From: a virus | Taxonomy: Duplodnaviria; Heunggongvirae; Uroviricota; Caudoviricetes | IMG/VR virus record: IMGVR_UViG_2541047802_000007 | DNA length: 64,000 nucleotides | Direction: 5' to 3' (one strand) | Shown: positions 14,093-63,650 of the stretch, piece after piece | How the letters are laid out: each line of letters opens with the position of its first letter | How positions within the stretch are numbered: position 1 is the first letter of the stretch | The notes under the pieces: generated by a model | Told to the model about the DNA's origin: nothing | The model's input: the letters and a program-made list of their open reading frames with translations, nothing else | The model's database searches: none | Position numbers and translations under genes: made by a program

Positions 14093-14118
14093 TTTTCATA
14101 AACGTTGGTTTGGGAGAA
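14093..14118. other. 26-bp invertase crossover site (pix/hix-like), left
   Basis: ttttcataaacgttggtttgggagaa; inverted copy at 16020..16045. Confidence 0.7.
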
Positions 14119-14559
14119 GCGGCAAAACGGAATGTGGGCAACGGGGAAAACCAAATCCCTGATATGTCTTTCTGGACGGTTACTGGTGGCAATGGAAATT
14201 TTGTGATTCGTCAACCTGACGGGCTAATCATTCAGATGGTTACTGTAAGTATAAGCGGCCCAGTGGCGATGAATGGAATGACTGATAATGCTTATGCCAT
14301 CACAGGTTCTAATAAGTCTTATATTGCCACAGCCACATTGCCCTTTGTATTTCCTAATAAGGTGCTGGGCGTTATCCCTCTGGTATCAACAACAGCTTAT
14401 GGTGGTGTATCCAGTAATATTACAGGTTCATACGCGACGGCGGTTTGTTCTTTTGCCGCTGTCAGGGGGAATAATACGATTGTGTTCAAAGTCGACAAAC
14501 CACTGAATGCAGCCTTTCCTTCAGATACCAGCGTCTCAGCGTTAATCATTGGACGGTAA
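14119..14559 (+). CDS. Tail-fibre C-terminal variable segment (Sv type), no own start
   Basis: Open frame runs through crossover site (FINVGLGE); track ORF 14065..14559 has artefactual N-terminus. Confidence 0.6.
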   Translation, partial: AAKRNVGNGENQIPDMSFWTVTGGNGNFVIRQPDGLIIQMVTVSISGPVAMNGMTDNAYAITGSNKSYIATATLPFVFPNKVLGVIPLVSTTAYGGVSSNITGSYATAVCSFAAVRGNNTIVFKVDKPLNAAFPSDTSVSALIIGR

Positions 14560-14561
14560 TA

Positions 14562-15005
14562 ATGAACTCAGTATTCTTTTCACCCGGAAGTAAAAGTTTT
14601 TATCTGCAAGAATTGTTTCCAGAATATGAGGATGCGGGAACGCTTCCTGATGATGTTATTGAAATTACCAGAGAAACATATGAGCAATTTCTTGGTCTGC
14701 ATCCAGAAGGGAAAGAAATTGGCGCTGACAGTTCAGGACGGCCAGTATGGATTAATTCCCCACCCCCTTCAAAAGAGGATGAGGTGTTGACGGCTGAAAT
14801 GAAAAAAATATCTTTGGTTTCAGAAGTCAATACCTACATCAATACCCATCAGTGGCCTGGCAAAGCTGCTATTGGTCGTCTGAAAGGCGAGGAACTGGCG
14901 CAATATAATTCGTGGCTGGATTATCTGGACGCACTGGAACTGGTCGATACTTCCTGTGCGCCAGATATTGAATGGCCTACGCCTCCGGCAGTTCAGGCCA
15001 GATGA
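14562..15005 (+). CDS. Tail fibre assembly chaperone
   Basis: 147 aa directly after Sv; C-terminal DIEWPTPP. Confidence 0.65.
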   Translation: MNSVFFSPGSKSFYLQELFPEYEDAGTLPDDVIEITRETYEQFLGLHPEGKEIGADSSGRPVWINSPPPSKEDEVLTAEMKKISLVSEVNTYINTHQWPGKAAIGRLKGEELAQYNSWLDYLDALELVDTSCAPDIEWPTPPAVQAR

Positions 15006-15579
15006 CATCCGGCGCTGTGCTGGTATTTGTTGCCGTCACCGCGTCAATGTAATCCAGCACAGCGTTAAGCCGGGTTGTTTCTGCCTGCATCAGCTTCCGT
15101 CCGGCCTGTAATTTCAGCTGAATCAGACCGATGGAAGCCATTGCAGCATCAATCAGTGACTGACGCTGTGCTTCTGCCGCGTCTACTGCGGCGCTATGCT
15201 GTGCCTCAGTATCGGTCACCCATTTCTCACCATCCCATTTATCGTATGGCGTTAATGGGGCAATAGTGGTTGTATTTTCGGGGTAATCACCCGGTGCTGT
15301 GATTTGTTTTGATTCTCCCGTTTCGGTGTTATAGACGATTTCACCGCGATGGTCTGGCACATATTCCCATGAATTTAAATTCACAGAACGACAGATAGCA
15401 TAACCCGCCTTATGTATACCTGGTGCATCCAGACAGGAATATGCCGGGATACCAACACCAACGGCAAGATATTCACTTGAAGTGGAAATATATTCCCGAG
15501 TTTCACCATCATAGTTATAAACGGTAATATCCCCTGCCTTTGTAGCAACAAGTCCACTATTTAATATTGCTTTATCCAT
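14977..15579 (-). CDS. Tail fibre assembly chaperone (TfaE-like), near-identical to prophage gpG at 47600..48202
   Basis: 200 aa MDKAILNSGLVATKAGDITVYNYDGETREY...; TAATG overlap with Sv' stop. Confidence 0.75.
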   Translation of the reverse strand: MDKAILNSGLVATKAGDITVYNYDGETREYISTSSEYLAVGVGIPAYSCLDAPGIHKAGYAICRSVNLNSWEYVPDHRGEIVYNTETGESKQITAPGDYPENTTTIAPLTPYDKWDGEKWVTDTEAQHSAAVDAAEAQRQSLIDAAMASIGLIQLKLQAGRKLMQAETTRLNAVLDYIDAVTATNTSTAPDVIWPELPEA

Positions 15580-16019
15580 TATGCTGCTCTCACGATATAG
15601 TTAAATGCAATGTTGCGTGGACGGGTATCGACGGGGTTAACGGCCACTGTACCCGACACGGACTGGTCATTACCGTTGCTAACGGTAATGTTACTACTGG
15701 TTGATCCAATCCCTACTGAATCGGTAAATTTAGCACCTGAGCCGCTCAAAGTTCCCGAGATGATAGCTAGCTCCACATAAAAAGTACCTACAGTTGGCTC
15801 TTGTGTTGACAGCACCGCACGCCTTGAATCAACGCCGCGCCCATCATCCCAGCCACGAATAAACTCACCACGTAAATCAGGCAATTTATTTGTCGGATAA
15901 GCCTTTGCCAGTTCCGGGTATTCTTCAGCAGAAAAAGCCGCACCGTTGCATTTCAGCCAGCCTGTTGGCGGTGTGGCTGAAGGCCATGGAACAGGCACAC
16001 CAACAGGTAATGCAGAGCC
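15579..16019 (-). CDS. Tail-fibre C-terminal variable segment (Sv' type), no own start
   Basis: GEGSALPVGVPVPWPSATPPTGWLKCNGAAF... shares N-part and last 13 aa with gpH C-terminus. Confidence 0.65.
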   Translation of the reverse strand, partial: GSALPVGVPVPWPSATPPTGWLKCNGAAFSAEEYPELAKAYPTNKLPDLRGEFIRGWDDGRGVDSRRAVLSTQEPTVGTFYVELAIISGTLSGSGAKFTDSVGIGSTSSNITVSNGNDQSVSGTVAVNPVDTRPRNIAFNYIVRAA

Positions 16020-16045
16020 TTCTCCCAAACCAACGTTTATGAAAA
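16020..16045. other. 26-bp invertase crossover site, right
   Basis: ttctcccaaaccaacgtttatgaaaa. Confidence 0.7.
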
Positions 16046-16088: not shown

Positions 16089-16211
16089 GGAGATCTACCA
16101 TGCTTATTGGCTATGTACGTGTGTCAACAAATGACCAGAACACAGATCTACAACGTAATGCGCTGAACTGTGCAGGATGCGAGCTGATTTTTGAAGACAA
16201 GATAAGCGGTA
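16089..16211 (+). pseudogene. Pin-like serine invertase, truncated after ~41 codons
   Basis: Same N-terminus as Gin at 56819..57436, then abrupt divergence and stop. Confidence 0.75.
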
Positions 16212-16323
16212 CAAAGTCCGAGACCTAGGGCTGACACTGCTGTTCTTGATGCAAATTAAAGTATTTAATAGTGAGTAGCGGCCTTACTAATGTAAGGCCA
16301 CTATAATCATTTTATTAATTGCA

Positions 16324-31436: not shown

Positions 31437-32846
31437 ATGTCTTTTCTTGATATAAAAAAAATGAGTAAAGAGAGGTTTAATGCTTTTGTTGATTGGACCA
31501 GAATGCCAAATACTGAACTTTTAGGCTATGAGTTTGAGTGGTACTGTAGTCCGAGAGAGTTCCTGCTAGGGGCACTATTATTGGATCAAATCGATGAAGA
31601 TTATAGCGGTATTGTTTTAGCAAGAGACTTAAGTGGGAGATATAGATGTATTGACCTATTTACTAGTGTTTCAGAAATGAATTCTGCACGAGCAAAACTA
31701 AAGAAATTAATGCGGAAGCATACTAAATTAAACGTAAAAGTATTTCCACAAGGTGATGAAACTTATAAAGCAATGGATTTATTCACACCTATAGTTACAC
31801 CAGATAAACTTCATCATCATTTTTCATTATTTGGTAAATATGCGAACTGGTCGCCTGCAACAGGGATAATCAAGGAAATGATGAATCATTTTGAGGATGT
31901 CGACGGGAATTTTATAGAGCAGTTTCAGACAACAGGTTTTGATGCCCGGCTATGGGAGTTATATCTTTTCGCATATTTACGAGAGGAACACTTTTGGCTA
32001 GATAGGCAGTTTAATGCCCCTGATTATGTGGCACGTAAGTATGGTAATACTATTTGCATTGAAGCTGTAACGGTTAATCCAACAGGGAATGATATTAATC
32101 AATCATCTGAAATGCTATCTGAACCTAAAAGTAAGGAAGAATTGCTAGAGAAAATAGAGAATTATATGCCGATTAAATTTGGAAGTTCTCTCTATTCTAA
32201 ACTGAAAAAGAAAACTCGATACTGGGATCTAGAACATGTTAAGGGGAATCCTTTAATTTTCGCAATTGCTGATTTTCATGAACCAAACTCTATGATTTGG
32301 TCCCATAGTGCACTTTGGCAGTATCTTTATGGTATTCGCTATGAGCATGTTAAATCTGAAGATGGATGTTACAGTTTAGCAACTAAGAAAATTATATCGC
32401 ATCAATTTGAGAAAAAGGAAATTCCTTCAGGCTTTTTCTTCTTGGATGAGTCTGAAAATATTTCGGCCGTCCTTAGTTCTAATAGTGGTACTATATCGAA
32501 GTTTAATCGGATGGGAAAACTGGCTGGTTTTGGAAGAAGTGACCTTAGATTATTTAGGAGTGGTTACTGCCATGATCATGACCCAGAGGCATTATATCCA
32601 GCAGCATTTAGTTTTGAAGTGAAAGAAGGCGATATTACAGAAACATGGGCAGAAGGTTTAAATATGTATCATAATCCTAATGCTAAATATCCTGTAGATC
32701 CTGATTTATTTCCTTCAATAGCACATCATTTTCTTGAAAATGGAGAGGTTAAAAGTATAGTGCCTGACTTTCATCCGTATACATCTATTACCATAAATGT
32801 CTTAACTCAAAATAATAAAAAACAAAAAATCAGAGTAGATGAGTAA
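31437..32846 (+). CDS. AT-rich cargo protein of unknown function, 469 aa
   Basis: Long ORF in low-GC island between cos-like site and portal gene; no recognisable motif. Confidence 0.6.
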   Translation: MSFLDIKKMSKERFNAFVDWTRMPNTELLGYEFEWYCSPREFLLGALLLDQIDEDYSGIVLARDLSGRYRCIDLFTSVSEMNSARAKLKKLMRKHTKLNVKVFPQGDETYKAMDLFTPIVTPDKLHHHFSLFGKYANWSPATGIIKEMMNHFEDVDGNFIEQFQTTGFDARLWELYLFAYLREEHFWLDRQFNAPDYVARKYGNTICIEAVTVNPTGNDINQSSEMLSEPKSKEELLEKIENYMPIKFGSSLYSKLKKKTRYWDLEHVKGNPLIFAIADFHEPNSMIWSHSALWQYLYGIRYEHVKSEDGCYSLATKKIISHQFEKKEIPSGFFFLDESENISAVLSSNSGTISKFNRMGKLAGFGRSDLRLFRSGYCHDHDPEALYPAAFSFEVKEGDITETWAEGLNMYHNPNAKYPVDPDLFPSIAHHFLENGEVKSIVPDFHPYTSITINVLTQNNKKQKIRVDE

Positions 32847-41711: not shown

Positions 41712-43412
41712 TTATTCAAGGTGATTTGAAAGAGTAATTAATGGCTCAATCGGTTGGAACGCTTTTAAGGATGTTAATATGTTTTTAACTTCCTTTGATA
41801 CGATAGATAACGGGTTGTCTGTTACAGATAAGTAGGTGGTTAAATCTTGACCTGAAACACGGATAACATGTGGTAATATCGCAGTTATAACTGGTGTCCA
41901 AAGGTCGATTAAATCATCCAGAGAGTTATTTTTAGATAATGCTGTATCATATTTATATTTTATTTTCTTCTTGTTCAAAGGTTTATCTGTTAATTCTTCA
42001 AGTATTTCTCCGATGACGGATATTAAAAAGAATCGAGACTTTAAATTTTGGAGGAATAATAAGTTATCCTCATCTACTTTAATTTTATTCTCTTTTGCAC
42101 GGATTTGAGATTTTACTTTTTCTATAGCTTTTGAAATAGTGTAAGCACATAAAATATGCTGGGCTTTCGAATCATGAAAGGCATTGTCATAGGCTGATTT
42201 TGTATCGAAAACGTAGTTTTTACCTCTATTGGCGCTAACATAATCCCCATGTAACGCTATCAGCGGTTGAGCAACAGACTCAATGCCAAATAAAGAACCA
42301 GTATTTTCGAAGCCGCGTTTCAGTGAATATGTATAACCAAGAGTGGAAAATTCTTCTGCCACCTGTTTTTGTTCTGTGCTGTTAGAGTAGTGATCCCAGG
42401 TTGTAATATGATTCTGAGTATTATTATACTGGACTATTTTTTTTACTTTGTCCGCATCATTACATTCAATAACCTTACAAAGGACTTTTAGGCCATCTAA
42501 TTTTTGTATATCTTGAACTGAACCAATAGAACCAGTGGTTTGAGCTCCATTTATGATTGAAACTCCTTCCAACAACCCTTTTTCTTTGTTGAATTTTGTT
42601 GTTAGGATTGATACACCATTGTTAAAGACAAAGAAGTCTTTTGGGGATGTTTCTGCGGTATTCTTAATTGATGAGTTTATTTTTCTTCTCTTATTTAATC
42701 CCATGAACCCCCTATAATTAGCAGAAAATAATTCTGCTCCATAATTTTTGTATAAATAATTTAGCCAAGTGCCGTTTGCAAAGCCAACATGTGAAGTCCA
42801 GCCATCACCTTGTACAGAATTTATAAGTTCGCCATTGAACTTTATATTGTCAGTCACAACAATTTGTTGTGATAGCGCAATATACAATTTTTCAAGACTA
42901 TTAACACCAAGTTCTCTGTAAGTTACCTCAATTTCTTTGTCTGCAAATCTACCTGCTAGATAGTCACGACAAGTTTCAAGCTCAGTTTTAACCTGCTCAG
43001 ATTCGGCACAATTATGGATATATAATAATTCAACAGCTTCAATTTCGTTATCATCAATTAATTTTCTAACCTCAGAAATTTTTGCTCTTAATTTTGCATT
43101 TGGAGACTCTCCTGAGCCTGCCATAATCCACGCTAAAGCAGTGTTTAAGTCAGAAGCTTTATTTGCAGGCGCAACTATTTTAAGTGCTTGCTGATTGCAG
43201 TAGTAACCCTGAGCAATAAATAACGTTGAATTAATTACGGTAATGAAGTCTATTTTCTTATCGTTTCCACCATCAGTAAGTCCATCAGATGCTAGCTTAT
43301 CAAAATCGGATTCATCTAAGTAAAGACCTAATGACCATAAAAGATGTGCGTTACTAGTCCCGTACTTTTCTAACAGGGAAGTTTTATTTTGCAGTTGTCT
43401 TAAGTGTTCCAT
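41712..43412 (-). CDS. AT-rich cargo protein, 566 aa, possibly Abi/AIPR-like
   Basis: Opposite-strand ORF in low-GC island between S and V; contains NGAQT; family not verified. Confidence 0.55.
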   Translation of the reverse strand: MEHLRQLQNKTSLLEKYGTSNAHLLWSLGLYLDESDFDKLASDGLTDGGNDKKIDFITVINSTLFIAQGYYCNQQALKIVAPANKASDLNTALAWIMAGSGESPNAKLRAKISEVRKLIDDNEIEAVELLYIHNCAESEQVKTELETCRDYLAGRFADKEIEVTYRELGVNSLEKLYIALSQQIVVTDNIKFNGELINSVQGDGWTSHVGFANGTWLNYLYKNYGAELFSANYRGFMGLNKRRKINSSIKNTAETSPKDFFVFNNGVSILTTKFNKEKGLLEGVSIINGAQTTGSIGSVQDIQKLDGLKVLCKVIECNDADKVKKIVQYNNTQNHITTWDHYSNSTEQKQVAEEFSTLGYTYSLKRGFENTGSLFGIESVAQPLIALHGDYVSANRGKNYVFDTKSAYDNAFHDSKAQHILCAYTISKAIEKVKSQIRAKENKIKVDEDNLLFLQNLKSRFFLISVIGEILEELTDKPLNKKKIKYKYDTALSKNNSLDDLIDLWTPVITAILPHVIRVSGQDLTTYLSVTDNPLSIVSKEVKNILTSLKAFQPIEPLITLSNHLE

Positions 43413-45380: not shown

Positions 45381-45978
45381 TCTGCTGCCACCGGGTTCAA
45401 CTTCACTGGAGCGCCGACTGGCGCAGACCTGTAGCGGGATTTCTGATCTGCAGGTGCCGCTGCGTGACTTGTGGAATCCGGCAACCTGTCCGGTCAGTTT
45501 CCTACCTTATCTCGCCTGGGCGTTCTCTGTGGATCGCTGGGATGAGGGCTGGACAGAAAGCGTCAAGCGCCAGGTGGTGAAGGATGCTTTTTATATTCAT
45601 CAGCATAAAGGGACCACCAGTGCCGTGCGGCGGGTGGTGGAGCCGTTCGGCTTTCTGATCCGCATTATTGAGTGGTGGCAGACCGGAGAGACACCGGGCA
45701 CGTTTCGTCTGGATATCGGCGTGCAGGACCAGGGCATCACTGAAGATACCTATCTGGAACTTGAGCGACTGATAAGCGATGCCAAACCATGTAGCCGTCA
45801 CATGATCGGCATGTCCATCAACCTGCAGACCAGCGGCCCGCATTGGGTGGGAGCCGCCAGCTATCTTGGCGAAGAAATCACGATCTATCCGTATATCAAC
45901 GAAACAATTATTTCCGGCGGCACCGCGCATGAAGGCGGGGCGGTCCATGTTATTGACACAATGAGAGTGAATCCATGA
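45373..45978 (+). CDS. I: Tail protein I
   Basis: 201 aa. Confidence 0.7.
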   Translation: MNSLLPPGSTSLERRLAQTCSGISDLQVPLRDLWNPATCPVSFLPYLAWAFSVDRWDEGWTESVKRQVVKDAFYIHQHKGTTSAVRRVVEPFGFLIRIIEWWQTGETPGTFRLDIGVQDQGITEDTYLELERLISDAKPCSRHMIGMSINLQTSGPHWVGAASYLGEEITIYPYINETIISGGTAHEGGAVHVIDTMRVNP

Positions 45979-47600
45979 GCACAAAATTTTATACCCTGCT
46001 GACGGATATTGGCGCGGCGAAACTTGCCAGCGCCGCCGCGCTCGGTGTGCCTTTAAAAATTACCCATATGGCGGTCGGCGATGGCGGCGGAACATTGCCA
46101 ACGCCGGACGCCAAGCAGACAGCATTGGTAAATGAGAAACGCCGGGCTGCGCTGAATATGCTCTATATCGACCCGCAGAACAGCAGCCAGATTATTGCTG
46201 AACAGGTGATCCCTGAAAACGAGGGCGGTTGGTGGATACGTGAAGTGGGCCTGTTTGATGAGTCCGGGGCATTGATTGCCGTGGGAAACTGCCCGGAAAG
46301 CTATAAGCCGCAACTGGCTGAAGGCAGCGGACGTACCCAGACCGTGCGCATGGTGCTGATAACCAGCAGCACGGACAATATCACCCTGAAAATCGACCCT
46401 GCCGTCGTGCTGGCAACCCGCAAGTATGTGGATGATAAGGTACTGGAGCTGAAGGTGTACGTGGATGACCTGATGGCAAAACATCTTGCCGCACCGGACC
46501 CGCATTCACAGTATGCACCCAAAGAAAGTCCGACGTTTACCGGGACACCCAAAGCGCCAACGCCAGCAGCAGGGAATAACACCACGCAGATTGCGACCAC
46601 CGCGTTTGTTCAGGCGGCTCTGACGGCTCTTATTAATGGTGCGCCAGCCACCCTGGACACGCTGAAAGAAATAGCCGCAGCCATTAACAATGATCCGAAA
46701 TTCAGTACCACCATTAACAATGCACTGGCACAAAAAGCGCCGCTGTCGAGTCCGGCACTCACCGGAACGCCAACAGCTCCCACGGCGGCGCAGTCGGTCA
46801 ACAATACACAGATTGCCACTACCGCTTTTGTGAAATCGGCAATTGCAGCAATGGTGGGTTCTGCACCTGCGGCACTGGATACGCTGAACGAACTGGCAGC
46901 GGCGCTGGGGAATGATCCGAACTTTGCCACGACAATAACTAACTCCCTTGCGGGGAAGCAGCCAAAGGATGCTACTTTAACGGCGTTGGCAGGGCTTTCT
47001 ACATCAAAAGATAAACTCCCTTATTTTACAGGGGAAGATCGAGCTGCCTTAACTGCACTGACAAGTGTTGGGCGTACCATTCTTAGCAGGCCCAGCGCAC
47101 AGGGCGTTCTTGATTATCTTGGTTTAGGGGATGGCTCTGCATTACCTGTTGGTGTCCCTGTTCCGTGGCCTTCTGCCACTCCACCGACAGGCTGGCTGAA
47201 ATGCAACGGAGCGGCTTTTTCGGCTGAAGAATATCCCAAACTGGCAAAGGTTTATCCGACAAATAAATTGCCTGATTTACGTGGTGAGTTTATTCGTGGC
47301 TGGGATGATGGGCGTGGTATTGATGCTGGGCGTGCTTTATTGAGCCTTCAGGCTGGAATGCTGGAAAAACACCGCCATATGGTTGTAGCCAACGATGGGT
47401 ATGATTCAAAAGAGGAATGGGAACTGGCGGCAATCTTCAGAAAAGCATATACGCAAGGCCGGGGGCTTGATGCTGCCGATGCCGGAGGGACTCTGATTCC
47501 ATCACCAACGCTACATACACGAGGGAGTATTGGTAACACAGGTGGGAGCGAAACCCGTCCACGAAATATTGCATTTAACTATATCGTGAGAGCTGCGTAA
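45975..47600 (+). CDS. H: Tail fibre protein H
   Basis: 541 aa; repeated ATTAFV...AAL motifs. Confidence 0.85.
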   Translation: MSTKFYTLLTDIGAAKLASAAALGVPLKITHMAVGDGGGTLPTPDAKQTALVNEKRRAALNMLYIDPQNSSQIIAEQVIPENEGGWWIREVGLFDESGALIAVGNCPESYKPQLAEGSGRTQTVRMVLITSSTDNITLKIDPAVVLATRKYVDDKVLELKVYVDDLMAKHLAAPDPHSQYAPKESPTFTGTPKAPTPAAGNNTTQIATTAFVQAALTALINGAPATLDTLKEIAAAINNDPKFSTTINNALAQKAPLSSPALTGTPTAPTAAQSVNNTQIATTAFVKSAIAAMVGSAPAALDTLNELAAALGNDPNFATTITNSLAGKQPKDATLTALAGLSTSKDKLPYFTGEDRAALTALTSVGRTILSRPSAQGVLDYLGLGDGSALPVGVPVPWPSATPPTGWLKCNGAAFSAEEYPKLAKVYPTNKLPDLRGEFIRGWDDGRGIDAGRALLSLQAGMLEKHRHMVVANDGYDSKEEWELAAIFRKAYTQGRGLDAADAGGTLIPSPTLHTRGSIGNTGGSETRPRNIAFNYIVRAA

Positions 47601-48202
47601 TGGATAAAGCCGTATTAAATAGCGAACTTATTGCCACGAAGGCGGGGAATATTACCGTCTATAACTATGATGGTGAAACACGGGAATATATTTCTGAATC
47701 AACTGAATATCTTGCTGTTGGCGTCGGTATTCCCGCACATTCGTGTTTAGATGCTCCTGGTTCATATAAGTCAGGTTATGTGTCCTGTCGAACTCTGGAT
47801 TTGAGATCATGGGAATATGTGCCAGACCATCGCGGTGAAATCGTCTATAACACCGAAACGGGGGACTCAAAAGAAATCACAGTGCCGGGAGATTACCCTG
47901 AAAAGACAACCACTATTGCTCCGTTAACACCATACGATAAGTGGGATGGTGAGAAATGGGTGACGGATACCAAAGCGCAACATAACGCAGCAGTGGAAGG
48001 GGCTGAACTGCAACGCCAGTCACTGATTGATGATGCCATGTCTTCCATTGTTCTGATTCAACTAAAATTGCAGGCGGGAAGAAAATTAACTGCGGAAGAA
48101 ACAGTAAAGCTCGATTCCGTTCTTGACTATATCGACGTGGTAGCAGCAATAGATATCAGCACAGCCCCTGATATTAACTGGCCCAAACTACCAGAAATTT
48201 AA
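47600..48202 (+). CDS. G: Tail fibre assembly protein G
   Basis: 200 aa; TAATG overlap with H. Confidence 0.8.
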   Translation: MDKAVLNSELIATKAGNITVYNYDGETREYISESTEYLAVGVGIPAHSCLDAPGSYKSGYVSCRTLDLRSWEYVPDHRGEIVYNTETGDSKEITVPGDYPEKTTTIAPLTPYDKWDGEKWVTDTKAQHNAAVEGAELQRQSLIDDAMSSIVLIQLKLQAGRKLTAEETVKLDSVLDYIDVVAAIDISTAPDINWPKLPEI

Positions 48203-48336
48203 ATTCCTGCCCCGCGCCTGCGGGGATTTTTTCGCCCCGTCGTTGTGCCATTTTCCATACAAAACCCATCGCGTGCACCCTGCGTGTATCAACCAGAACA
48301 TAGGCAGACCCCCTCTACAACCGGAGAGACTGCCTT

Positions 48337-55329: not shown

Positions 55330-55410
55330 TGAAGCGGCGCACGAAAAGCGCGAAAGCGTTTCAAATAAAATACGAAAACTCAAAACTTTCGCGCTTCAAT
55401 TGAGACAGTT
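55330..55410. promoter_or_regulatory. Mu-type right end with transposase-binding repeats
   Basis: tgaagcggcgcacgaaaagcgcgaaagcgtttcaaataaaatacgaaaac closely resembles the Mu R-end as recalled. Confidence 0.75.
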
Positions 55411-55422
55411 GTTTTATGTATG

Positions 55423-55869
55423 TCAGTTTCGTTTACATTTATATGTCTTAAAAATATTCACATCATCTCGGATATAAAGATTTTTTCCTGATTTATCAAC
55501 GATAAAATACTTTATAACCGCAGGATTTCTAGTCAAAGCATAGAGATAATCAGTCCCTTTAATCTTTTCATCCTTGTCTTGTTCGTCAATTTGGCCTGTT
55601 TCTATCTGAGTGTATAGTTCACCTGTATCAAGGTCTGTCCATGACCCCATATCAACGCCCATATGCATACGAATACCGTGGCAGGTCCAAAAACCAGAGG
55701 CAGGGGCTTTATTTGCAACACTCTTATCTGGATCTATCCCGGCGGACCTTAAGACTGCATCAGCAGCCACTTCAGGATCAAAATCTTTTTCTTGAGCGTG
55801 ATTGACTGAGGAGGCGGTTAGTACGAATAGGCTGATGATGGTACTGATTAGCAATTTTGATTTTTTCAT
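55423..55869 (-). CDS. Secreted hypothetical protein (signal peptide), AT-rich
   Basis: MKKSKLLISTIISLFVLTASSVNHA signal-like N-terminus; between mom and element end. Confidence 0.5.
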   Translation of the reverse strand: MKKSKLLISTIISLFVLTASSVNHAQEKDFDPEVAADAVLRSAGIDPDKSVANKAPASGFWTCHGIRMHMGVDMGSWTDLDTGELYTQIETGQIDEQDKDEKIKGTDYLYALTRNPAVIKYFIVDKSGKNLYIRDDVNIFKTYKCKRN

Positions 55870-55913
55870 CTAATATGCTCCGTATGTGAGTAAATACATA
55901 AATTTATATGATA

Positions 55914-56651
55914 CTAATCAGAACTGCTTTTTGGGTATGGCTGAATCCTGAATAGTTTGGTATTTAGCCGCTTTCTTGCTCGCTTGTTCAGGAACCTGAT
56001 GTAGCGATACTGATTAAATTTGTGCACCACGGCACGCTCTTTATTAGCCCGTAAATACATGCCTCGTTGTCCACCGCGCTTAATTGCGTTCATCGTTATC
56101 TCGTGATACCACTCACCATCCAGCTCGTAGAACGTGCTTTCATGGCTGCCAATAAAATCAAAATTTGACGCCTGATACACAACGCCAGCACGTCCGCAGC
56201 GTTCGTCTGCAAAAGACTGAACCCACTCCACTGACGGATACAGTAACCTTATGGTTTTCAGTGCATAACTGATGGCCCGTGATTCAGAGTTGCGGGGCAT
56301 GTCGTCGTGTAGCCACATGCGGTTCAACTCCATATAGCCCCGGTTATCCGTTTCAAGCACGACACGACGACCAGAGTTGGGGTTAAGGGCATATCCCCAC
56401 TGGAGAACGCCAACCAGATCGCGTCCGCTGAATACTCCCAAGTGGAGGTAAGAGTTATTCACAAAACGGCGGGAATAGTGCTTTGTCTGAATAATTGTGC
56501 GGGCCAGCCAGCAGGATATGGTTTCAACGCGCAGCTCCTTTGAACCATAGCCAACAATCTGGCTTTCATACTCAATAACGCACGGTTTCGTCAGAATGCG
56601 TGATTTCTTCTCTTTTCCCACAATGTTTCTCCGTGGGATGCTCGCAGGCAT
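55914..56651 (-). CDS. mom: Mom-like DNA modification protein (start uncertain)
   Basis: 245 aa ORF overlapping com 3' end, downstream of gin-com. Confidence 0.55.
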
Positions 56652-56760
56652 TCAGCATTATGATATGACGTTTGCAACGCGGACACCTGATTTCAATGTG
56701 ATCAAAGGAATCCGCCTTAAATAACAGTTTGTTGCAGTTTTTACAGCGAATTGATTTCAT
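56572..56760 (-). CDS. com: Com zinc-finger translational activator of mom
   Basis: 62 aa [14 protein letters not shown]...RCPRCKRH four-Cys finger. Confidence 0.7.
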
Positions 56761-56818
56761 CTCACCTCCTTTGCATCAATTCGCCACTATCTTAAAAAAC
56801 ATCGTGGGTTGAGTGTGG

Positions 56819-57436
56819 TTATTGGGGCATAATCGATCTGTATTGCCGATCGATTTGATTGATTCGATCGTCGTTTTCTATATGCGTTCGTTTCGCGGGG
56901 TGTTTTTTATACAGAGTTGACAGAGCCACATCATAGATCAATGCAACCTGCTTGCGGGGGATTCCTTGTACTAATAAACGCCCGGCCTGCTCCCATTCCG
57001 CTTTGGTTAGTTTAGGTGGTCGCCCACCAATACGGCCTTTATTTCTGGCGGCAGCAAGTCCAGCCATCGTTCGCTCGATGATTAGTTCTCGTTCCATTTC
57101 AGCCAGGGCACCCATAACGTGGAAGAAAAAACGCCCCATTGGAGAAGATGTGTCTATGCTGTCGGTAAGACTGCGAAAATTAATCCCTCGCTCCCGTAGT
57201 TCCCCGACGAGGGAAATCAGATGTTTCATGCTTCGCCCGAGGCGATCCAGTTTCCAGACAACCAGTGTGTCACCTTTTTGAAGGCGCTTTAACGCGCGTT
57301 TTAATCCAGGTCTGTCTGTCCTTGTTCCGCTTAATTTATCTTCAAATATTTGTTCACATCCTGCACAAACAAGAGCGTTTCGTTGCAGGTCTGTATTCTG
57401 GTCATTTGTTGATACCCTTACATAGCCAATCAGCAC
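56819..57436 (-). CDS. gin: Gin/Pin-family serine DNA invertase, intact
   Basis: 205 aa; catalytic Ser in YVRVSTNDQ; C-terminal HTH. Confidence 0.85.
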   Translation of the reverse strand: MLIGYVRVSTNDQNTDLQRNALVCAGCEQIFEDKLSGTRTDRPGLKRALKRLQKGDTLVVWKLDRLGRSMKHLISLVGELRERGINFRSLTDSIDTSSPMGRFFFHVMGALAEMERELIIERTMAGLAAARNKGRIGGRPPKLTKAEWEQAGRLLVQGIPRKQVALIYDVALSTLYKKHPAKRTHIENDDRINQIDRQYRSIMPQ

Positions 57437-57490
57437 TCTGGATCTCCCGTTTAAAAGCGCAAATCACGCCATGCAGGCCGGAAACAACCA

Positions 57491-57516
57491 TTATCTAAAA
57501 CCTCGGTTTACAGGAA
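57491..57516. other. gix crossover site (invertase-proximal)
   Basis: ttatctaaaacctcggtttacaggaa, inverted repeat of 60486..60511. Confidence 0.75.
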
Positions 57517-58377
57517 ACGGTAAACAGGGCTGGTAACGCCGTGCAAAAAAATGGCGATACCTTGTCCGGTGGGCTTACTTTTGAAAATGACTCAATCCTT
57601 GCCTGGATTCGAAATACTGACTGGGCGAAGATTGGATTTAAAAATGATGCCGATGGTGACACTGATTCATACATGTGGTTTGAAACAGGCGACAACGGCA
57701 ATGAATATTTCAAATGGAGAAGCCGCCAGAGCACCACAACAAAAGACCTGATGACGCTGAAATGGGATGCACTAAATATTCTGGTAAATGCCGTCATTAA
57801 TGGCAGTCTTGGAGTTGGTACGACGAATGCGTTAGGTGGTAGCTCTATTGTTCTTGGTGATAATGACACCGGATTTAAACAGAATGGAGACGGCATTCTG
57901 GATGTTTATGCTAATAGTCAGCGTGTATTCCGCTTTCAGAATGGAGTGGCTATTGCTTTTAAAAATATTCAGGCTGGGGATGGTAAAAAATTCACGCTAT
58001 CCAGCTCCAACAACTCCACGAAGAACGTAGGGTTTAATTTATGGGGCGCTTCGTCAAGGCCAACTGTTGCAGAGCTTGGCGATGATTCTGGCTGGCATTT
58101 CTATAGTCAGCGAAATACAGATAACTCAGTAATATTTGCTGTTAACGGTCAGATACAACCCAGCAACTGGGGGAATTTTGATTCCCGCTATGTGAAAGAT
58201 GTTCGCCTAGGTACGCGTGTTGTTCAATTGATGGCGCGTGGTGGTCGTTATGAAAAAGCCGGACACGCAATTACCGGATTAAGAATCATTGGTGAAGTAG
58301 ATGGCGATGATGAAGCCATCTTCAGACCAATACAAAAATACATCAATGGCACATGGTATAACGTCGCACAGGTGTAA
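57517..58377 (+). CDS. Alternative tail-fibre variable segment S'v (silent in this orientation)
   Basis: Frame opens at crossover site and would fuse to Sc after inversion. Confidence 0.65.
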   Translation, partial: TVNRAGNAVQKNGDTLSGGLTFENDSILAWIRNTDWAKIGFKNDADGDTDSYMWFETGDNGNEYFKWRSRQSTTTKDLMTLKWDALNILVNAVINGSLGVGTTNALGGSSIVLGDNDTGFKQNGDGILDVYANSQRVFRFQNGVAIAFKNIQAGDGKKFTLSSSNNSTKNVGFNLWGASSRPTVAELGDDSGWHFYSQRNTDNSVIFAVNGQIQPSNWGNFDSRYVKDVRLGTRVVQLMARGGRYEKAGHAITGLRIIGEVDGDDEAIFRPIQKYINGTWYNVAQV

Positions 58378-58380
58378 ATT

Positions 58381-58914
58381 ATGCAGCATTTAAAAAATAT
58401 TAAGTCAGGAAATCCAAAAACAAAAGAGCAATATCAGCTAACAAAGAATTTTGATGTTATCTGGTTATATACAGAAGACGGTAAAAACTGGTATGAGGAA
58501 GTAAATAACTTTCAGGAAGACACCATAAAGATTGTTTACGACGAAAATAATATTATTGTTGCCATAACCAAAGATGCCTCCACACTTAACCCTGAAGGTT
58601 ATAGCGTCGTTGAGATTCCTGATATTACCGCCAACCGGCGTGCTGACGACTCAGGTAAATGGATGTTTAAAGATGGCGCAGTCATTAAACGTGTATATAC
58701 CGAAGAAGAGTTGCGCCTACAGACGGAAAACCAGAAAAAAATATTATTACAGCAGGCCAGAGAAAAAACGCAGTTCTGGCAAACACAGCTTGCGCTGGGA
58801 ATTATCAGCGATTCAGACAGGCAAAGACTCATTAACTGGATGTTATACATGCAGCAGGTTGATGCCACAGATACCTCTGTTCTTCCTGTAACATTCCCGG
58901 AACAACCAGAATGA
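58381..58914 (+). CDS. Tail fibre assembly protein U'
   Basis: 177 aa. Confidence 0.7.
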
Positions 58915-58942
58915 GACAAGGCCCGCTATCGGGCCTTAATTT

Positions 58943-59470
58943 TTATTCAGGCTTTTGTGGCCATTCAGGCTTTGCCGTATCTACACGGCTGACCAGAACG
59001 CTGTAGCGTTCCCATGATTCCAGCCGTGTGCGTTCCTTGTCTGTTGCCATATTCAGCCTTACAGCACGTTCCAGCGGTTGAATCACAGACTCCGCTTCAG
59101 AAAGCAAAGCGGCTTTTTGTAACTCAGCCTGCTGCTGCAGTTCCTGTTCTGTATATTCCCGTTTTACCACTTTACCATTCAGAAACATCCAGTTTCCGTA
59201 ATTATCTGCGCGACGATTTGCCGTAATATCGGATACTTCAACAACACTTAAACCTTCCGGGTTAATAGTTGAAACATCTTTGCTTACGGTAACAATCACA
59301 TTATTTTTATCGTATGCAATTTTTATAGTATCTGGTTGAAAGTTTTTTTGTTCTTCGTACCAGTTTTTACCATCTTCAGTATAAAGCCAGACAACTCCAG
59401 CTTTTTTGGTTAACTGGTATTGTTCTGGTGTTTTTGGGTTTCCTGCTTTAATGTTTTTTAAATGCATCAT
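58943..59470 (-). CDS. U: Tail fibre assembly protein U
   Basis: 175 aa. Confidence 0.7.
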
Positions 59471-59471
59471 G

Positions 59472-61007
59472 TCAAATACTCACAACGTTATAATATGTCC
59501 CACCAATCAACTTCTGAATAGGTCTTCTGGTTAATGTATCAATAAACTCATCGGTGTTGCTGTTTCCGGCTGCGGTCAGAACATATCCAGAAGTATCCCA
59601 ATAACCAGGGCCTCGCCATGCTGATATTGATTCTGCGCTACCAAGTCGAATGTCTCTTACATATGTGCTATTGAGATAATCAGCTAAATTTGAACCCCAA
59701 CACCCGCCAAATATATTTCCATCGGTGTTATAACGGATGCCACCCGCAACAAGAGCACCCGGTGAAATAAAAGATTTATCGTTCGGGTTAAACTGCCATA
59801 AAGCATCATTACCGCCATCGCCACGCATATGAATACATGGAACCGGAAATCCATACTGTTCTGTCAGCAAATAACCAAAGCTGACCGCGCCGGGATAGCC
59901 CTGTCCATTGCGAATGGACAAGCCCTTAACTATCGGCACGTAATGACCACCAGGAGTGGGATTCCAGGCAAACTGCGTCTGAACAAAAGGCGCGGTGGCA
60001 TTATTCAACTGGTCTGCAAATGCGCCACTTCCATCAGGAATTATTCCCTGATGAATATATGCAACCCGCTTATAAAAATCAGCAGATGCGGGTTGAAGCC
60101 CGAATGCCAGTTGTCCATTTGAATAGAATAAAAGGACACCGTCGCCGCCCTGTTTAATACCAGTGTCGTTATCTCCGAGAGTAATGGAATTACCGCCCAG
60201 TGCGTTATCTGTACCAAGCGCCAGCCCACCATCAATTTTGGCCCCGTGGCTGACCGATATAGCTCCTGTTCTCAGATTTATAGCGAATGGCCTTAATGGG
60301 CCGATATCACCGTTTTCGCCTTGTCCTTCAGCCGTAGGGATGAAATGAAGGTACTCTTCTGAACGACGGAAAATAAGACCGAAGGCATCATTAAAAATTC
60401 GCAGCGCATTCATCGTGCCAATTTTCAGTTCTCCGGTCATTTTATCGCCGGAACGCTGAACGGCGTTACCAGCCTTGTTTACCGTTTCCTGTAAACCGAG
60501 GTTTTGGATAAACAGCGGCTTATTGGGAATATCTGCTCCGTTCCGGTCTTTTGCCAGACGGGCATTGGCATTATCCATCGCAATTTTCACCGCTTTTGCA
60601 GTGGCTGCCAGCGTTTCACTGGGGCTGTCAGTGGCACTGGTTAGCTGAACGAGTCCTTTTTTGTTCAGGCTGGCATCATAGATATCCAGATTTTCACGTG
60701 CTGTACGCTGTGCTGATGCCCCGGCAGTTTTAATTTCGCTGAGGTTATTTTTTATCAGCAGCGCGTTATTGCTCATAATGGCTTTAATGGACAGTGCAAG
60801 CTGGTTTAATTTTGTTTTATCCGGTTGAATACCGGCTTCTTCCAGCGTGTTTAATAACTCCGCCTGCACAATATTAAACCAGTCCATGCCGGGCCATGTG
60901 ATAACATTATTCCCGTCACCTTCTGAAAACCAGCGAACGATAGCACTACGCTGGGCGGATACGGGCGGCATGACGGTTACGCCGCTGTCGTTATCAATAT
61001 AAAACAT
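59472..61007 (-). CDS. S: Tail fibre protein S (constant Sc + variable Sv, current orientation)
   Basis: 511 aa; gix site lies in frame (FIQNLGLQE) inside the gene. Confidence 0.8.
60486..60511. other. gix crossover site (inside S)
   Basis: ttcctgtaaaccgaggttttggataa. Confidence 0.75.
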
Positions 61008-61549
61008 TAGTTATCTCCGTCATGGTAAACAAATTTATAAATCTGATGTGCGGGTTTATATTTCTCCAGTAAACATTCCAGCGCACCCGATTCATAAACA
61101 CGTAACGGCGTCAGAACATTATCCAGCACCGTTGCGTTGCGATAATTTTTAATACCGTAAATATTGACCTGCGTAACCCACTGGCCTTCTGTGGAATCCG
61201 TCAGCCTAACGGTAAAACCGTACTGTGCAGCCAGCCATTCATAAAAGCGCCGACTCAGATTGCCGGTCATACGCATTTTATTCGCGGCAGCCCGCTGGCG
61301 TTCGGACAAGGTGCCGTTTTCGCTGGTACAGTCCGGCAACCCCAGAAATGATTCCCACTCCCCCAGATACCAGCGGGATGTGGACGGGAAACGCTCCCGC
61401 AGCATTTGCCGCGCATCATCCGCCGCAGTGGCAATCACGTCGCTGATGGCCTGCGCCAGCGCAGATAATTTGCTGTCGGGGCTTTTATTCCAGGCAAGCC
61501 CTGACGGCAGTAATTGCAGAAAGGCCGTCTGATAGGGTGTTACAGCCAT
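61007..61549 (-). CDS. Tail protein (Mu gp48-like)
   Basis: 180 aa, position between baseplate J-like gene and S. Confidence 0.55.
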   Translation of the reverse strand: MAVTPYQTAFLQLLPSGLAWNKSPDSKLSALAQAISDVIATAADDARQMLRERFPSTSRWYLGEWESFLGLPDCTSENGTLSERQRAAANKMRMTGNLSRRFYEWLAAQYGFTVRLTDSTEGQWVTQVNIYGIKNYRNATVLDNVLTPLRVYESGALECLLEKYKPAHQIYKFVYHDGDN

Positions 61550-62622
61550 TCAATTGTCCCCGGTGTTAACAGTTCCGTATTCTCCGAACGCTGGATCTCT
61601 GTCGGGAAACGCACTTCAAAATCATCCAGACCGGTAACACCTGCCACCGCACGGATAATACGGGAGGGGGCAAGTGCGCCGCCCGGCGTCACCTCATTAA
61701 AAAACATGGTATTAATGGCGTGGGTAATAGCCTGTTTCAGTTCGGCTGTCTTCGGTGATATATAAATCCGTGGATTTACCGGCTTTGCCTTTGGCGCAAA
61801 TACAGTGACATTTACACCGTCAGGCTGTCCGACAATCAGACCGGTGATCGGGTCAGTATGACCGGCGATATAATCCGCCACGCGTTCCACGTCTGCCGGT
61901 TGTGGAAAAATATTGCTCCGGTTATCCATAACAAACGTCACCCCGACTGTGCCACCGCCTTTCCATGTCGGAAAACACCAGGCACGGGTAACGCCGCTGA
62001 CTTCACGTGCCCAGCGAACGTAATCAAACTGATTACCGCCGAACGGAGGGTACTGGACACGATATTCCAGCCGTGACAGCAGTTCCGCTGCACTCTCAAT
62101 ATCAGCTCCACCGGAAAACCCTTTTACAGTGATGGCATCGGAAACAACACAGGCAACCGGGGTGATCAACGTTAAAAGGGTATTCTCACCGGTATTTCCT
62201 GCTTCACCGGCAGCCAGTGCGGTAACGGTAATTTCCGTCGTTCCTGCACGGTCAATCACAATGGCATCAGCCAGGCTGTAAACCACACCATCAGCACGCT
62301 GCCAGCGTGTACCGGCAGGAATGGTGGTCGCTGCCGATGTGGTGACAGTCAGCGGGCCGCTGGCGGCTGTCGCCTGTTTGCGGCGCACGCCCCAGAACCG
62401 GCAGTGCTCCAGCAACTCATCTTCATCTGCTGTCGACGGGATAATCTGCCGTCCAACCCATGAAATATGCTCGTGACAACCGGCAGCAAGCCCTGCCTGG
62501 GCGTAAGCAATGGCACTCAGCGTTTTTTCACGGGCCTGAGGCCAGCTACCCGGCAGGCGCTGTTCAATATTCTGTTCTGTACGGGCAATCAGCGATGATA
62601 ATGTCGGTGGTGAATAAGCCAT
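61540..62622 (-). CDS. Baseplate J-like protein (Mu gp47-like)
   Basis: 360 aa. Confidence 0.65.
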   Translation of the reverse strand: MAYSPPTLSSLIARTEQNIEQRLPGSWPQAREKTLSAIAYAQAGLAAGCHEHISWVGRQIIPSTADEDELLEHCRFWGVRRKQATAASGPLTVTTSAATTIPAGTRWQRADGVVYSLADAIVIDRAGTTEITVTALAAGEAGNTGENTLLTLITPVACVVSDAITVKGFSGGADIESAAELLSRLEYRVQYPPFGGNQFDYVRWAREVSGVTRAWCFPTWKGGGTVGVTFVMDNRSNIFPQPADVERVADYIAGHTDPITGLIVGQPDGVNVTVFAPKAKPVNPRIYISPKTAELKQAITHAINTMFFNEVTPGGALAPSRIIRAVAGVTGLDDFEVRFPTEIQRSENTELLTPGTIEWL

Positions 62623-63060
62623 TTAAACCCCGTTAAATGCTGCTTTAAACTCATAAGGAATAACGGAACCATCCGGTAATGTCAGTGCAATGTAGAGGTA
62701 TAACCAGCCCTGATGTAACTGTTCCGCTCTGACGTTAACCGCACTTACCCGGCCTGCTGTTTTCAGCCATTCCAGCGCCTCTTCGGCATACCCTCTGGCA
62801 CGTTCCAGCGTATCCTGTGTGGCTTTTTCACGTGATAACAGCCACAACCGCGAACCAATGGGGCGGTCGCGGTAACTGTCACCCCACCATCCACGGCGAT
62901 CATCTGAACCATCCGGCAGCGTGTCAGAATCCAGCGCGCGCCGGTCGGTAAACAGGGAGATTGTCACATCGGTTGTCAGGCTGTCGTCGGTCAGCATATC
63001 AATGCCATCCTGTGCAATATCGCCGCGTCCGTTCGTCCAGATAATGGCTAAATCGGTCAT
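62623..63060 (-). CDS. Baseplate protein (Mu gp46-like)
   Basis: 145 aa. Confidence 0.55.
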   Translation of the reverse strand: MTDLAIIWTNGRGDIAQDGIDMLTDDSLTTDVTISLFTDRRALDSDTLPDGSDDRRGWWGDSYRDRPIGSRLWLLSREKATQDTLERARGYAEEALEWLKTAGRVSAVNVRAEQLHQGWLYLYIALTLPDGSVIPYEFKAAFNGV

Positions 63061-63650
63061 TGCATTGGCCCCGTGGTTCCGCCGCTGTCGCCACGGTGGA
63101 TATGCTTATCCGTCGATTTGCCATTGATGATGGCATCCGGGGCAGTAATATTGCTGTCGAACTGGCTTTTACCTTTAACGCCCAGACCTTTCTGGATCTC
63201 AACGTCGCCGGTAAACGTGGTTCTGGGTGTATCAACGGTCATACTTTCATCGGCGTAAATCTCAACCGTTTTACAGGTAATGATGCAGCGCCCGTCCTTT
63301 GTCAGCCTGATACGATGTCCCTCGTGGTGGTAAATGCCTGCATCACCCGGTTCAAGATTTGTCGGGCGGTAGCGGCGGTCTTCCACCACAACGGCAATCC
63401 CCTGATCACGTTGTGCACCCACACAGGCAATCAGCGCCTCTGCGCCCGGCAGAGGAACGCTGAAATGCCCGTAATTTTGCAGGCGCTCCACTTCATCAGA
63501 TTCCTCATCATCCAGCAGACCGACCTGCAGGTTCTGAACCTTTCGCCCGTCGTTAATCACGTTAACAACGGCACGCGCAAGCATCAGACGCACACGACGC
63601 ATCAGCGGTGCCAGCAGGCGGTTCATGGCGGAATCATTTACTCTTTCCAC
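63057..63650 (-). CDS. Baseplate assembly/spike protein V-like (Mu gp45-like)
   Basis: 197 aa. Confidence 0.6.
   Translation of the reverse strand: MERVNDSAMNRLLAPLMRRVRLMLARAVVNVINDGRKVQNLQVGLLDDEESDEVERLQNYGHFSVPLPGAEALIACVGAQRDQGIAVVVEDRRYRPTNLEPGDAGIYHHEGHRIRLTKDGRCIITCKTVEIYADESMTVDTPRTTFTGDVEIQKGLGVKGKSQFDSNITAPDAIINGKSTDKHIHRGDSGGTTGPMQ

Follow-up and report, generated by a model that had tools for sequence, protein, structure and literature searches.

The analysed window, a 64,000-nt stretch of a Caudoviricetes record (IMG/VR IMGVR_UViG_2541047802_000007), carries two loci in which a gene for a tail-fibre tip is followed by one for a predicted assembly chaperone: H and G of a P2-like prophage, and Sv1 and U1 of an invertible cassette (Table 1). 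The N-terminus of H (residues 1-150) matches the whole of the Pfam profile PF12571 (1-150 of 150, E = 1.9e-65, 219.9 bits), and the Collar domain PF07484 is found at residues 393-440 (E = 5e-14). The open reading frames follow the order I-H-G-sheath, as expected from the late operon of P2-like phages, in which the sheath and tube genes come after V-W-J-I-H-G, and the identical locus of strain S88 is annotated as baseplate V, W/gp25 and J, tail protein I, fibre, assembly protein, sheath and tube. G scores 104.6 bits against PF02413 (Caudo_TAP) over residues 78-199 and U1 scores 105 bits, the curated cut-off being 22.1. Lambda Tfa, Mu U, P2 G and e14 TfaE belong to the same chaperone family, whose role in the trimerisation and folding of fibres is thereby predicted for G and U1 as well. 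Collar and Caudo_TAP are present at both loci, and each chaperone gene lies immediately downstream of its own fibre gene, the two overlapping in a TAATG stop/start (47598-47602 for H/G, 15581-15577 for Sv1/U1). A hairpin 3' of G may act as a terminator. The P2-like prophage looks defective, with a frameshifted gpA and an interrupted ogr (ogr::Mu junction), and H and G may therefore not be expressed.

Table 1. Features of the P2-like H/G locus, the invertible cassette and the associated invertases.
Feature	Coordinates	Strand	Basis
Sv2 (gp53-like C-terminus, to 14559) and chaperone U2 (14562-15005), alternative cassette half	14120..15005	+	ORFs; PF21882 (weak), PF02413
U1, cassette chaperone (TfaE type, predicted), 200 aa	14977..15579	-	Pfam Caudo_TAP; tfaE in IHE3034 and S88
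Sv1, fibre C-terminus of the collar type, its insert unlike that of H	15579..16019	-	ORF; Pfam Collar E = 1e-15
Left 26-bp crossover site (TTTTCATAAACG TT GGTTTGGGAGAA)	14093..14118		Comparison with IHE3034 left site
Right 26-bp crossover site, mirror of left	16020..16045		Repeat search and sequence comparison
Serine invertase stub, ~42 codons (MLIGYVRVSTNDQ...)	16100..16228	+	ORF; annotation in relatives
H, gpH-type tail fibre of the P2-like prophage, 541 aa	45975..47600	+	ORF; Pfam; 100% match in S88 and MS7163
Degenerate Din-type crossover site in H (TTCTTGATTATC TT GGTTTAGGGGAT)	47107..47132	+	Sequence comparison
Block 1, predicted first half of collar domain (GLG-GSALPVGVPVPWPSATPPTGWLKCNGAAF...GWDDGRG)	47119..47335	+	90.3% identity to cassette; aligned to gp37
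Variable, putatively receptor-binding H insert (residues ~455-526)	47336..47548	+	Unalignable to cassette; matches gp37 D11 position
Conserved H end, TRPRNIAFNYIVRAA, predicted strand returning to collar	47549..47600	+	15/15 aa; aligned to gp37 1003-1026
G, tail-fibre assembly chaperone gene (gpG/TfaE type, predicted), 200 aa	47600..48202	+	Pfam PF02413
Terminator-like hairpin (CCCCGC GCCT GCGGGG + T run) after G	48210..48232	+	Sequence inspection
Intact Gin-type serine invertase of the Mu-like prophage	56819..57436	-	Pfam Resolvase and HTH_7

The cassette is bounded by two inverted 26-bp crossover sites. A first-pass annotation of this DNA had described it as an orphan, which is accurate inside the window, where the fibre constant part is absent upstream of the cassette and the left flank is instead an inverted copy of the right one. 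The description does not extend to related strains, since the constant part is found in S88, joined in frame to Sv1 to encode a 247-aa protein, and in IHE3034, joined to Sv2 rather than Sv1. The cassette thus lies in opposite orientations in S88 and IHE3034, and junctions of the two kinds are found at 100% identity, in PMV-1 and ATCC 11775; the 341-nt junction queries are confounded, because their collar-block and invertase-stub portions match many other cassettes (968 and 160 genomes), and are used here solely to establish both junction types at 100% identity, not to count orientations. The natural left site, as seen in IHE3034, reads CTCTCGAAAACC TT GGTTTGGGAGAA, and that of the window has the invertase-side outer half-site in place of the constant-part one. 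No functional serine invertase adjoins the cassette. The stub, mirrored on the minus strand at 13910-14038, retains about 125 nt of coding sequence from the 5' part, where the invertase genes of Din-family cassettes hold a Fis-dependent enhancer, resembles the beginning of the Mu-like gin gene at 75% identity and is annotated as 'recombinase family protein, incomplete' in both IHE3034 and S88. Hence, flipping of the cassette would need an enzyme supplied in trans, and the sole complete invertase of the window, a Gin-type enzyme whose gene is adjoined by mom and com in related genomes, is a candidate for this role.

When the two loci are compared, H and Sv1 display a pattern of conserved, variable and conserved segments. 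It is recovered as two BLASTN matches (E = 4e-80 and 6e-148), far above chance, and a repeat search of the window yields the same pairs. The first conserved block corresponds to 16033-15817 of the cassette, with 196 of 217 nt and 65 of 71 encoded amino acids identical. The middle segments (213 nt in H against 186 nt at 15816-15631) reach about 36% identity, which amounts to no real alignment, and the protein regions that they encode are unrelated. Similarity then resumes in a second block of 647 nt (47549-48195 against 15630-14984) at 80% identity, and the stop codon of G is the limit of all similarity to the cassettes. The pattern proposed by the first-pass annotation is thereby borne out, and pairwise alignment places sharp boundaries at 47335/47336 and 47548/47549 instead of the uniform divergence that might have been found. 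The same annotation was right that the fibre ends are identical, but they share 15 residues (90% identity at the nucleotide level) and not 13, and its estimate of 85-90% identity between the two chaperones was too high, the measured values being 156/200 (78.0%) for amino acids and 78.9% for nucleotides. What H and Sv1 do not have in common is precisely the putative receptor-binding insert. At the other edge, the similarity sets in at the central TT (47119-47120) of a degenerate Din-type site in H, in which 9 of 12 bases of the inner half-site and 6 of 12 of the outer half are matched, and this site may be a relic of a crossover site.

The boundaries can be related to a known fold. A search of PDB sequences matched the H tip to that of T4 gp37 (2XGF, E = 1.5e-18). 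The match falls into two stretches, with query 13-98 aligning to chain 27-106 and query 143-166 to chain 219-242, which are residues 811-890 and 1003-1026 of gp37. According to PMC6957217, the collar domain D10 of gp37 comprises residues 811-881 and 1010-1026, and D11 (882-1009) is inserted between these two parts. The conserved blocks of H are thus predicted to match both halves of the gp37 collar, with the variable stretch as the needle/tip inserted there. Tips of the gp37 type form an intertwined trimer; a single-sequence AlphaFold2 monomer of H residues 376-541 was unusable (pLDDT 34.2, pTM 0.24), and the domain mapping is therefore based on sequence alignment to gp37. The H insert contains one His-x-His motif (H466-R-H468), which aligns with a gp37 HSH. 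The insert of Sv1, unlike gp37, has no His-x-His motif and may for this reason have another fold.

Of 5426 E. coli genomes, 434 carry the H insert, in several phage contexts that include P2-like H genes, invertible cassettes beside pinE and 116 places on plasmids. Its presence in the E1 invertible cassette of the same family (96% identity), in O157:H7 (82%) and on a ~90-kb plasmid (83-84%) shows that P2-like fibres and such cassettes are supplied from one pool. Although the H insert is common in E. coli prophages, a comparison with 50,697 deposited phage genomes gave no close match, the nearest being 57.5% in one 95-kb phage. Every good match in these records consists of two pieces flanking the insert, in P2-like, HK97, Klebsiella, Salmonella and Citrobacter phages. 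The Sv1 insert is found in only 109 genomes and always at the cassette locus. A protein search with it returned, from two candidates, one 116-aa ENA protein (96%), and in phage sequences tblastn detected nothing beyond a C-terminal match in Erwinia phage EtG; at the sensitivities of these searches, no distant relatives were detectable.

The relatedness of the chaperones is uncoupled from that of the tips. G is just 79-80% identical to the TfaE proteins adjoining H-type tips, despite its own tip being 96% like that of E1, whereas U1, whose tip has no His-x-His, is 87.5-90% identical to such proteins (the TfaE of E1, O157:H7 and BEN2908). Identity between G and U1 is 79% over residues 1-77, 86% over 78-140 and 68% over 141-200, and the N-terminal domain of TfaE/gpG-type chaperones is about 80-90% identical across unrelated tips. 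This uncoupling hints that a given chaperone may be able to work with more than one insert. It has also led us to a more specific proposal, which we put forward as speculative and rather unlikely: that, in this collar-type fibre family, TfaE/gpG-type chaperones recognise the conserved split collar and the C-terminal strand, not the variable tip, so that collar and chaperone make up a universal socket. If this were true, unrelated receptor-binding inserts could be exchanged without a change of chaperone. The possibility that H/G resemble the S/U genes of the Mu-like prophage (57.5-61 kb) was also considered and was rejected for want of BLASTP hits; the Mu-like U and U' likewise have no BLASTP match to G or U1. 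Against PDB sequences, G matched none of the solved chaperones, its sole hit being due to chance (E = 0.13).

The sharp boundaries, together with the conflicting relationships of individual segments to other E. coli loci, demonstrate recombination within this fibre-tip gene family. Compared with the window cassette, H is 90% identical in block 1 and 36% in the insert; compared with the E1 cassette or the P2-like H of BEN2908, the values are 79% in block 1, 96% in the insert and 98% in the H end. In a segment-by-segment comparison of six sequences, informative sites divide 33:8 between the window cassette and the E1 cassette as the partner of H in block 1, and 8:103 in the segments that follow (Fisher test, p = 2e-18).

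Module exchange, as suggested by the first-pass annotation, is hence upheld for the gene family, but not as a direct event between the two loci of the window. Recent gene conversion or reciprocal recombination between H/G and the cassette in this genome would have had material to work on, given that the loci are inverted relative to each other at a distance of 31 kb and have an exact match of 63 nt (47252-47314) in common, long enough for RecA-dependent recombination, and that block 1 of H is nearer to the window and O157:H7 cassettes (90-91%) than to E1 and BEN2908 (79%). Such an exchange is nonetheless highly improbable. Identity in the shared blocks reaches no more than 90% and 80%, the 63-nt stretch is the longest exact match, and synonymous differences are many, affecting 14 of the 71 codons of block 1 and 58 of the 201 of G. 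The cassette is also nearer to O157:H7 than to H/G, both in block 1 (96.8% nucleotide identity, as opposed to 90.3% to H) and in its chaperone (89.5% aa, as opposed to 78% to G). Moreover, S88 has a 100% identical H/G and the same annotated arrangement of cassette chaperone, Sv2 and truncated invertase, so that nothing has moved since S88 and the window strain diverged. With shared blocks at 80-90% identity and closer relatives elsewhere, the H/G and cassette of the window are not supported as each other's donors.

We also hold it very unlikely that an ancestral gene pair diverged in place, without recombination, the middle of the tip evolving fast under diversifying selection. Receptor-binding regions do evolve fast, and G shows a gradual loss of identity (86% to 68%) as its 3' end is approached; but the middles differ in length (213 and 186 nt) and have no residual protein similarity just bases away from flanks at 90%, and the same insert (96%) is tied elsewhere to a block 1 of 79%, in the segment conflict tested above. 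Finally, positions 1-14119 are the perfect reverse complement of 16019-30137 (14,119 nt), a palindromic arrangement around the cassette that was not seen in any complete E. coli genome and that is probably an assembly artefact as regards the inverted left-flank copy, yet the notion that this assembly also created the H/G-cassette similarity, or the cassette itself, can practically be dismissed, for IHE3034, APEC O1 and many other strains contain the cassette interior and its right flank at 100% identity, H/G has its identical counterpart in S88, and only the left flank is suspect, which leaves the comparison unaffected.

In our view, it is very likely that H/G and Sv1/U1 are two products of a shared pool of host-range units, with unrelated inserts and no recent mutual exchange. 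Each unit would consist of a T4 gp37-type fibre tip followed by a TfaE/gpG-type chaperone, the stop of the fibre gene overlapping the start of the chaperone gene. Within the tip, the chain would form the first collar half, extend into the needle/tip that touches the receptor and then double back, its last ~15 residues completing the collar. Because the chain leaves and rejoins the collar, many phages would have kept the collar-coding block and the C-terminal strand along with the chaperone gene, and the stretch between the conserved blocks would be a replaceable insert that presumably determines the receptor. The conserved blocks may in turn provide a foothold for homologous recombination, by which P2-like prophages, e14/Mu-tail-type invertible cassettes, large plasmids and lambdoid phages would come to trade inserts and, separately, chaperones. 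The breakpoints at 47119, 47335/47336 and 47548/47549 fall where the gp37-type tip has its domain boundaries. These observations carry little weight as a discovery, the genes being identical to annotated genes of well-studied ExPEC strains. They may have modest practical value in pointing to natural splice points at which P2-based delivery particles or tailocins could be engineered for other host ranges.

Several known systems share parts of this organization. Like the Din-family host-range segments (the e14 P segment, pinE-stfE-tfaE; Mu G; P1 C; p15B Min), the cassette holds two opposed sets of tip and chaperone between inverted 26-bp sites, with a chaperone annotated as tfaE and both orientations represented among strains. 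It differs from them in its stub invertase and in the replacement of the constant-part side by an inverted invertase-side flank, while the P2-like H/G locus has no invertible segment and only a degenerate half-site where the similarity begins. By sequence, T4 gp37 (2XGF) shares with H a collar split by an inserted needle/tip, the presence of His-x-His and a C-terminal NIAFNYIVR motif, but its insert has 128 residues and seven iron-binding His-x-His motifs, as opposed to 68 residues (about half) and one motif in H, and its chaperones are gp38/gp57A instead of the Caudo_TAP type. TfaMu (PDB 5YVQ) has a conserved C-terminal Caudo_TAP domain in a two-domain chaperone layout (PMC9608196). G has the same domain and layout, although it has no sequence match to solved chaperones and the Mu-like U and U' of the window are unlike G and U1 by BLASTP.

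The mosaicism of H and the cassette is therefore an instance of the already known shuffling of modules among phage host-range genes, which is textbook biology. In 1992, Haggard-Ljungquist, Halling and Calendar (J Bacteriol 174:1462) reportedly described how genes for tail fibres had passed horizontally between P2, Mu, P1, lambda and T-even phages, which is now an established result. That 1992 paper stands in the reference list of PMC9594776. The H/G genes of P2, whose H has 669 aa as opposed to 541 aa in the window, are like those of the window in their gene order (I-H-G, then sheath), in the N-terminal P2-type fibre domain and in the combination of a constant fibre part with a borrowed tip, the C-terminus and chaperone being common to unrelated phages.

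The tip of H, the tail-fibre gene of the P2-like prophage, has the conserved-variable-conserved organization in common with the invertible cassette that the first-pass annotation had described. BLASTN yields two matches around an unalignable middle: block 1, the stretch coding for the first half of the collar (90.3% over 217 nt, E = 4e-80; 65/71 residues identical), and a second match (84.1%, E = 6e-148) that a search of the window for repeats lengthens to 647 nt at 80%. Between them, a global alignment finds only chance-level identity (213 nt in H vs. 186 nt in the cassette), and all similarity ends at the chaperone stop codon. Nucleotide alignment thus reveals sharp breakpoints instead of uniform divergence, and the mosaic pattern is real. 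The common C-terminus is indeed identical, over 15 residues (TRPRNIAFNYIVRAA) and not 13, and the assembly chaperone G, previously put at 85-90% identity to its cassette counterpart U1, reaches 78.0% at the amino-acid level.

Features of the window bearing on the H/G mosaic
Feature	Position	Strand	Remarks
H, P2-like tail fibre	45975-47600	+	541-aa ORF
G, tail-fibre assembly protein	47600-48202	+	200-aa ORF
Invertible cassette	14120-16018		two opposed fibre tip and chaperone sets
Sv2/U2 (tip/chaperone)		+	cassette half
Sv1/U1 (tip/chaperone)		-	cassette half
Sv1 insert	15631-15816	-	variable stretch, ~62 aa
Block 1, H vs cassette	47119-47335 vs 16033-15817
Second match, H/G vs cassette	47549-48079 vs 15630-15100
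Inverted-repeat arms	1-14119 and 16019-30137		14,119 nt each, around 1,899-nt cassette
Cassette invertase	16100-16228		stub of ~42 codons
DUF262/GmrSD-type gene	16324-18273	-	adjoins cassette
Its mirror copy	11865-13814	+
gpA-type replication gene	27175-28092, 28089-30176		two overlapping frames
PD-T7-1 homologue	31437-32846	+	E = 1e-196; adjoins portal gene
AIPR/AbiU-like gene	41712-43412	-	between tail-completion and baseplate genes
ogr/Mu-like junction	55330
Mu-like prophage region	55330-64000
Mu-like Gin	56819-57436

This pattern had been attributed to an exchange of receptor-binding modules between prophage and cassette. Four further loci, all carrying the insert of H, were fetched: a P2-like prophage (BEN2908), two cassettes of the same family, adjoining a truncated invertase stub in strain E1 and an intact pinE in O157:H7, and an 89-kb plasmid. 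Segment identities conflict among the compared loci. In block 1, informative sites of H favour the window cassette over E1 by 33:8, and in the segments after it they favour E1 (8:103; Fisher p = 2e-18). Recombination within the fibre-tip family is therefore demonstrated. Neither of the window loci was the partner of the other: the blocks common to H/G and the window cassette diverge by 10-20%, for the most part at synonymous positions, their longest exact match is 63 nt and each block has a closer relative elsewhere. Module exchange hence stands for the family but not as a direct transaction between prophage and cassette: the mosaic is explained by shuffling across the family.

Segment identities among fibre-tip loci
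Comparison	Block 1	Insert	H end	G C-terminal third
H/G vs window cassette	90%	36%	90%	70%
H/G vs E1 or BEN2908	79%	96%	98%	70%
Window cassette vs O157:H7	96.8%	32%	88%	93.5%

The breakpoints also follow the architecture of the protein. H carries a P2-type fibre domain at its N-terminus (PF12571, E = 1.9e-65) and a collar domain at residues 393-440 (PF07484), while G is a Caudo_TAP assembly protein (PF02413, 104.6 bits). A PDB sequence search with the C-terminal 166 residues of H hits the receptor-binding tip of T4 gp37 (2XGF, E = 1.5e-18) in two stretches, H 388-473 aligning with gp37 811-890 and H 518-541 with gp37 1003-1026. PMC6957217 assigns residues 811-881 and 1010-1026 of gp37 to the collar domain D10, and describes D11 (needle and tip, 882-1009) as an insertion into it. 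The split alignment and this layout indicate that each conserved block of H forms half of a single domain, into which a receptor-binding element, the variable stretch, is inserted; the mosaic breakpoints coincide with domain boundaries. A single His-x-His in H (H466, H468) aligns with an iron-binding motif of gp37, and Sv1 has none. Modelling of the H tip without an alignment gave no usable model (pLDDT 34).

A 26-bp site of Din invertase type lies at each end of the cassette (TTTTCATAAACG TT GGTTTGGGAGAA); in the natural left site of IHE3034, the outer half alone differs from the window site. Similarity between H and the cassettes starts at the central TT and inner half-site, where H reads TTCTTGATTATC TT GGTTTAGGGGAT, matching the inner half at 9/12 bases and the outer half at 6/12. 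We infer that this may be a decayed crossover site, the former joint of a P2-type constant part with a cassette-type tip. In the P2-like prophage of BEN2908, parts of an opposed tail-fibre assembly gene and of an invertase helix-turn-helix domain lie 3' of G (3344-3589 of that locus). These remains of an invertible cassette are evidence that a P2-like H/G pair was captured from one; no such remnant is present at H/G in the window.

The cassette itself, initially deemed an orphan, is not so in S88 and IHE3034, where it lies in opposite orientations at the end of a prophage with HK97-type head and Mu-type tail, fused to a short constant part to give a 247-aa fibre. The window lacks this context: the fibre constant part and baseplate genes that relatives have on the side of the left arm are replaced, and the two arms flanking the cassette are perfect reverse complements, the left one running up to position 1, the edge of the window. 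A genuine inverted duplication is possible. However, the arrangement has no counterpart among 5426 complete E. coli genomes, and the repeat switches within the 26-bp crossover site, as expected of a wrong assembly-graph path when both orientations coexist in culture. An assembly fold-back from a culture mixed for cassette orientation is thus most likely. Since the cassette invertase is a stub and yet both orientations occur among strains, flipping presumably relies on a trans-acting invertase, for which the Mu-like Gin of the window would be a candidate. Next to the cassette lies a type IV methyl-directed restriction enzyme (DUF262/GmrSD type), an anti-phage defence gene. In strain 2022E04-002 (NZ_CM132301.1; 9917-13215 of the fetched locus), the same cassette has the invertase stub and DUF262 gene on one side and a full-length recombinase with P2-type tail genes on the other, in what looks like a chromosomal rearrangement through recombination between crossover sites of two prophage cassettes.

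H/G is found at 100% identity over 2,228 bases in S88, MS7163 and other E. coli strains, annotated as tail fibre and assembly protein; in S88 it resides inside a P2-like late operon, beside ssrA. In the window, the gpA-type gene is split (it is annotated as frameshifted in S88 too) and the end of a Mu-like prophage (TGAAGCGGCGCACGAAAAGCGCGAAAG) interrupts the ogr late-activator gene after ~32 codons, before the last zinc-finger cysteine. The P2-like prophage carrying H/G is therefore probably defective. The ogr junction occurs in no complete E. coli genome of the collection; beyond it come mom, com, gin and a G-type invertible segment. Two further anti-phage defence genes are present: one for an AIPR/AbiU-like protein within the P2-like prophage, and a PD-T7-1 homologue adjoining the portal gene.

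In Tfa chaperones, the N-terminal domain binds the fibre and the C-terminal one is conserved, as PMC9608196 states in summarizing North et al. 2019. Among G, U1 and the chaperones of E1, O157:H7 and BEN2908, similarity does not track that of the tips. U1, beside a tip without His-x-His, is 87.5-90% identical to the latter three, which adjoin H-type tips, whereas G, itself beside an H-type tip, reaches just 79-80%. This uncoupling suggests, as a working hypothesis, that inserts travel independently of chaperones and that the conserved collar may be what the chaperone recognizes.

The two inserts differ in their spread. Of 5426 complete E. coli genomes, 434 carry that of H, 116 of its locations being on plasmids. 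Among deposited phage records, matches to the H-G region come from P2-like, HK97-like, Klebsiella, Salmonella and Citrobacter phages, and all those listed fall in two pieces either side of the insert. The Ser/Gly/Thr-rich Sv1 insert occurs in 109 of the 5426 (at least 95% identity), always single-copy, chromosomal and at one locus. Relatives of this insert are all but absent: a 5.8-billion-protein database yields one match, and 50,697 phage records none but a C-terminal match in a single Erwinia phage.

Haggard-Ljungquist, Halling and Calendar reportedly noted in 1992 that P2, Mu, P1, lambda and T-even phages have fibre C-termini and assembly genes in common, and are said to have taken this as evidence of horizontal transfer. 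The study (J Bacteriol 174:1462) is cited in PMC9594776. According to PMC9942202 and PMC9594776, giving P2 fibres a P1 S' or S16 gp37 segment as a new tip, along with the matching chaperone, is now routine. The H/G mosaic, built from genes already annotated in public genomes, is an instance of this phenomenon, already known in kind.
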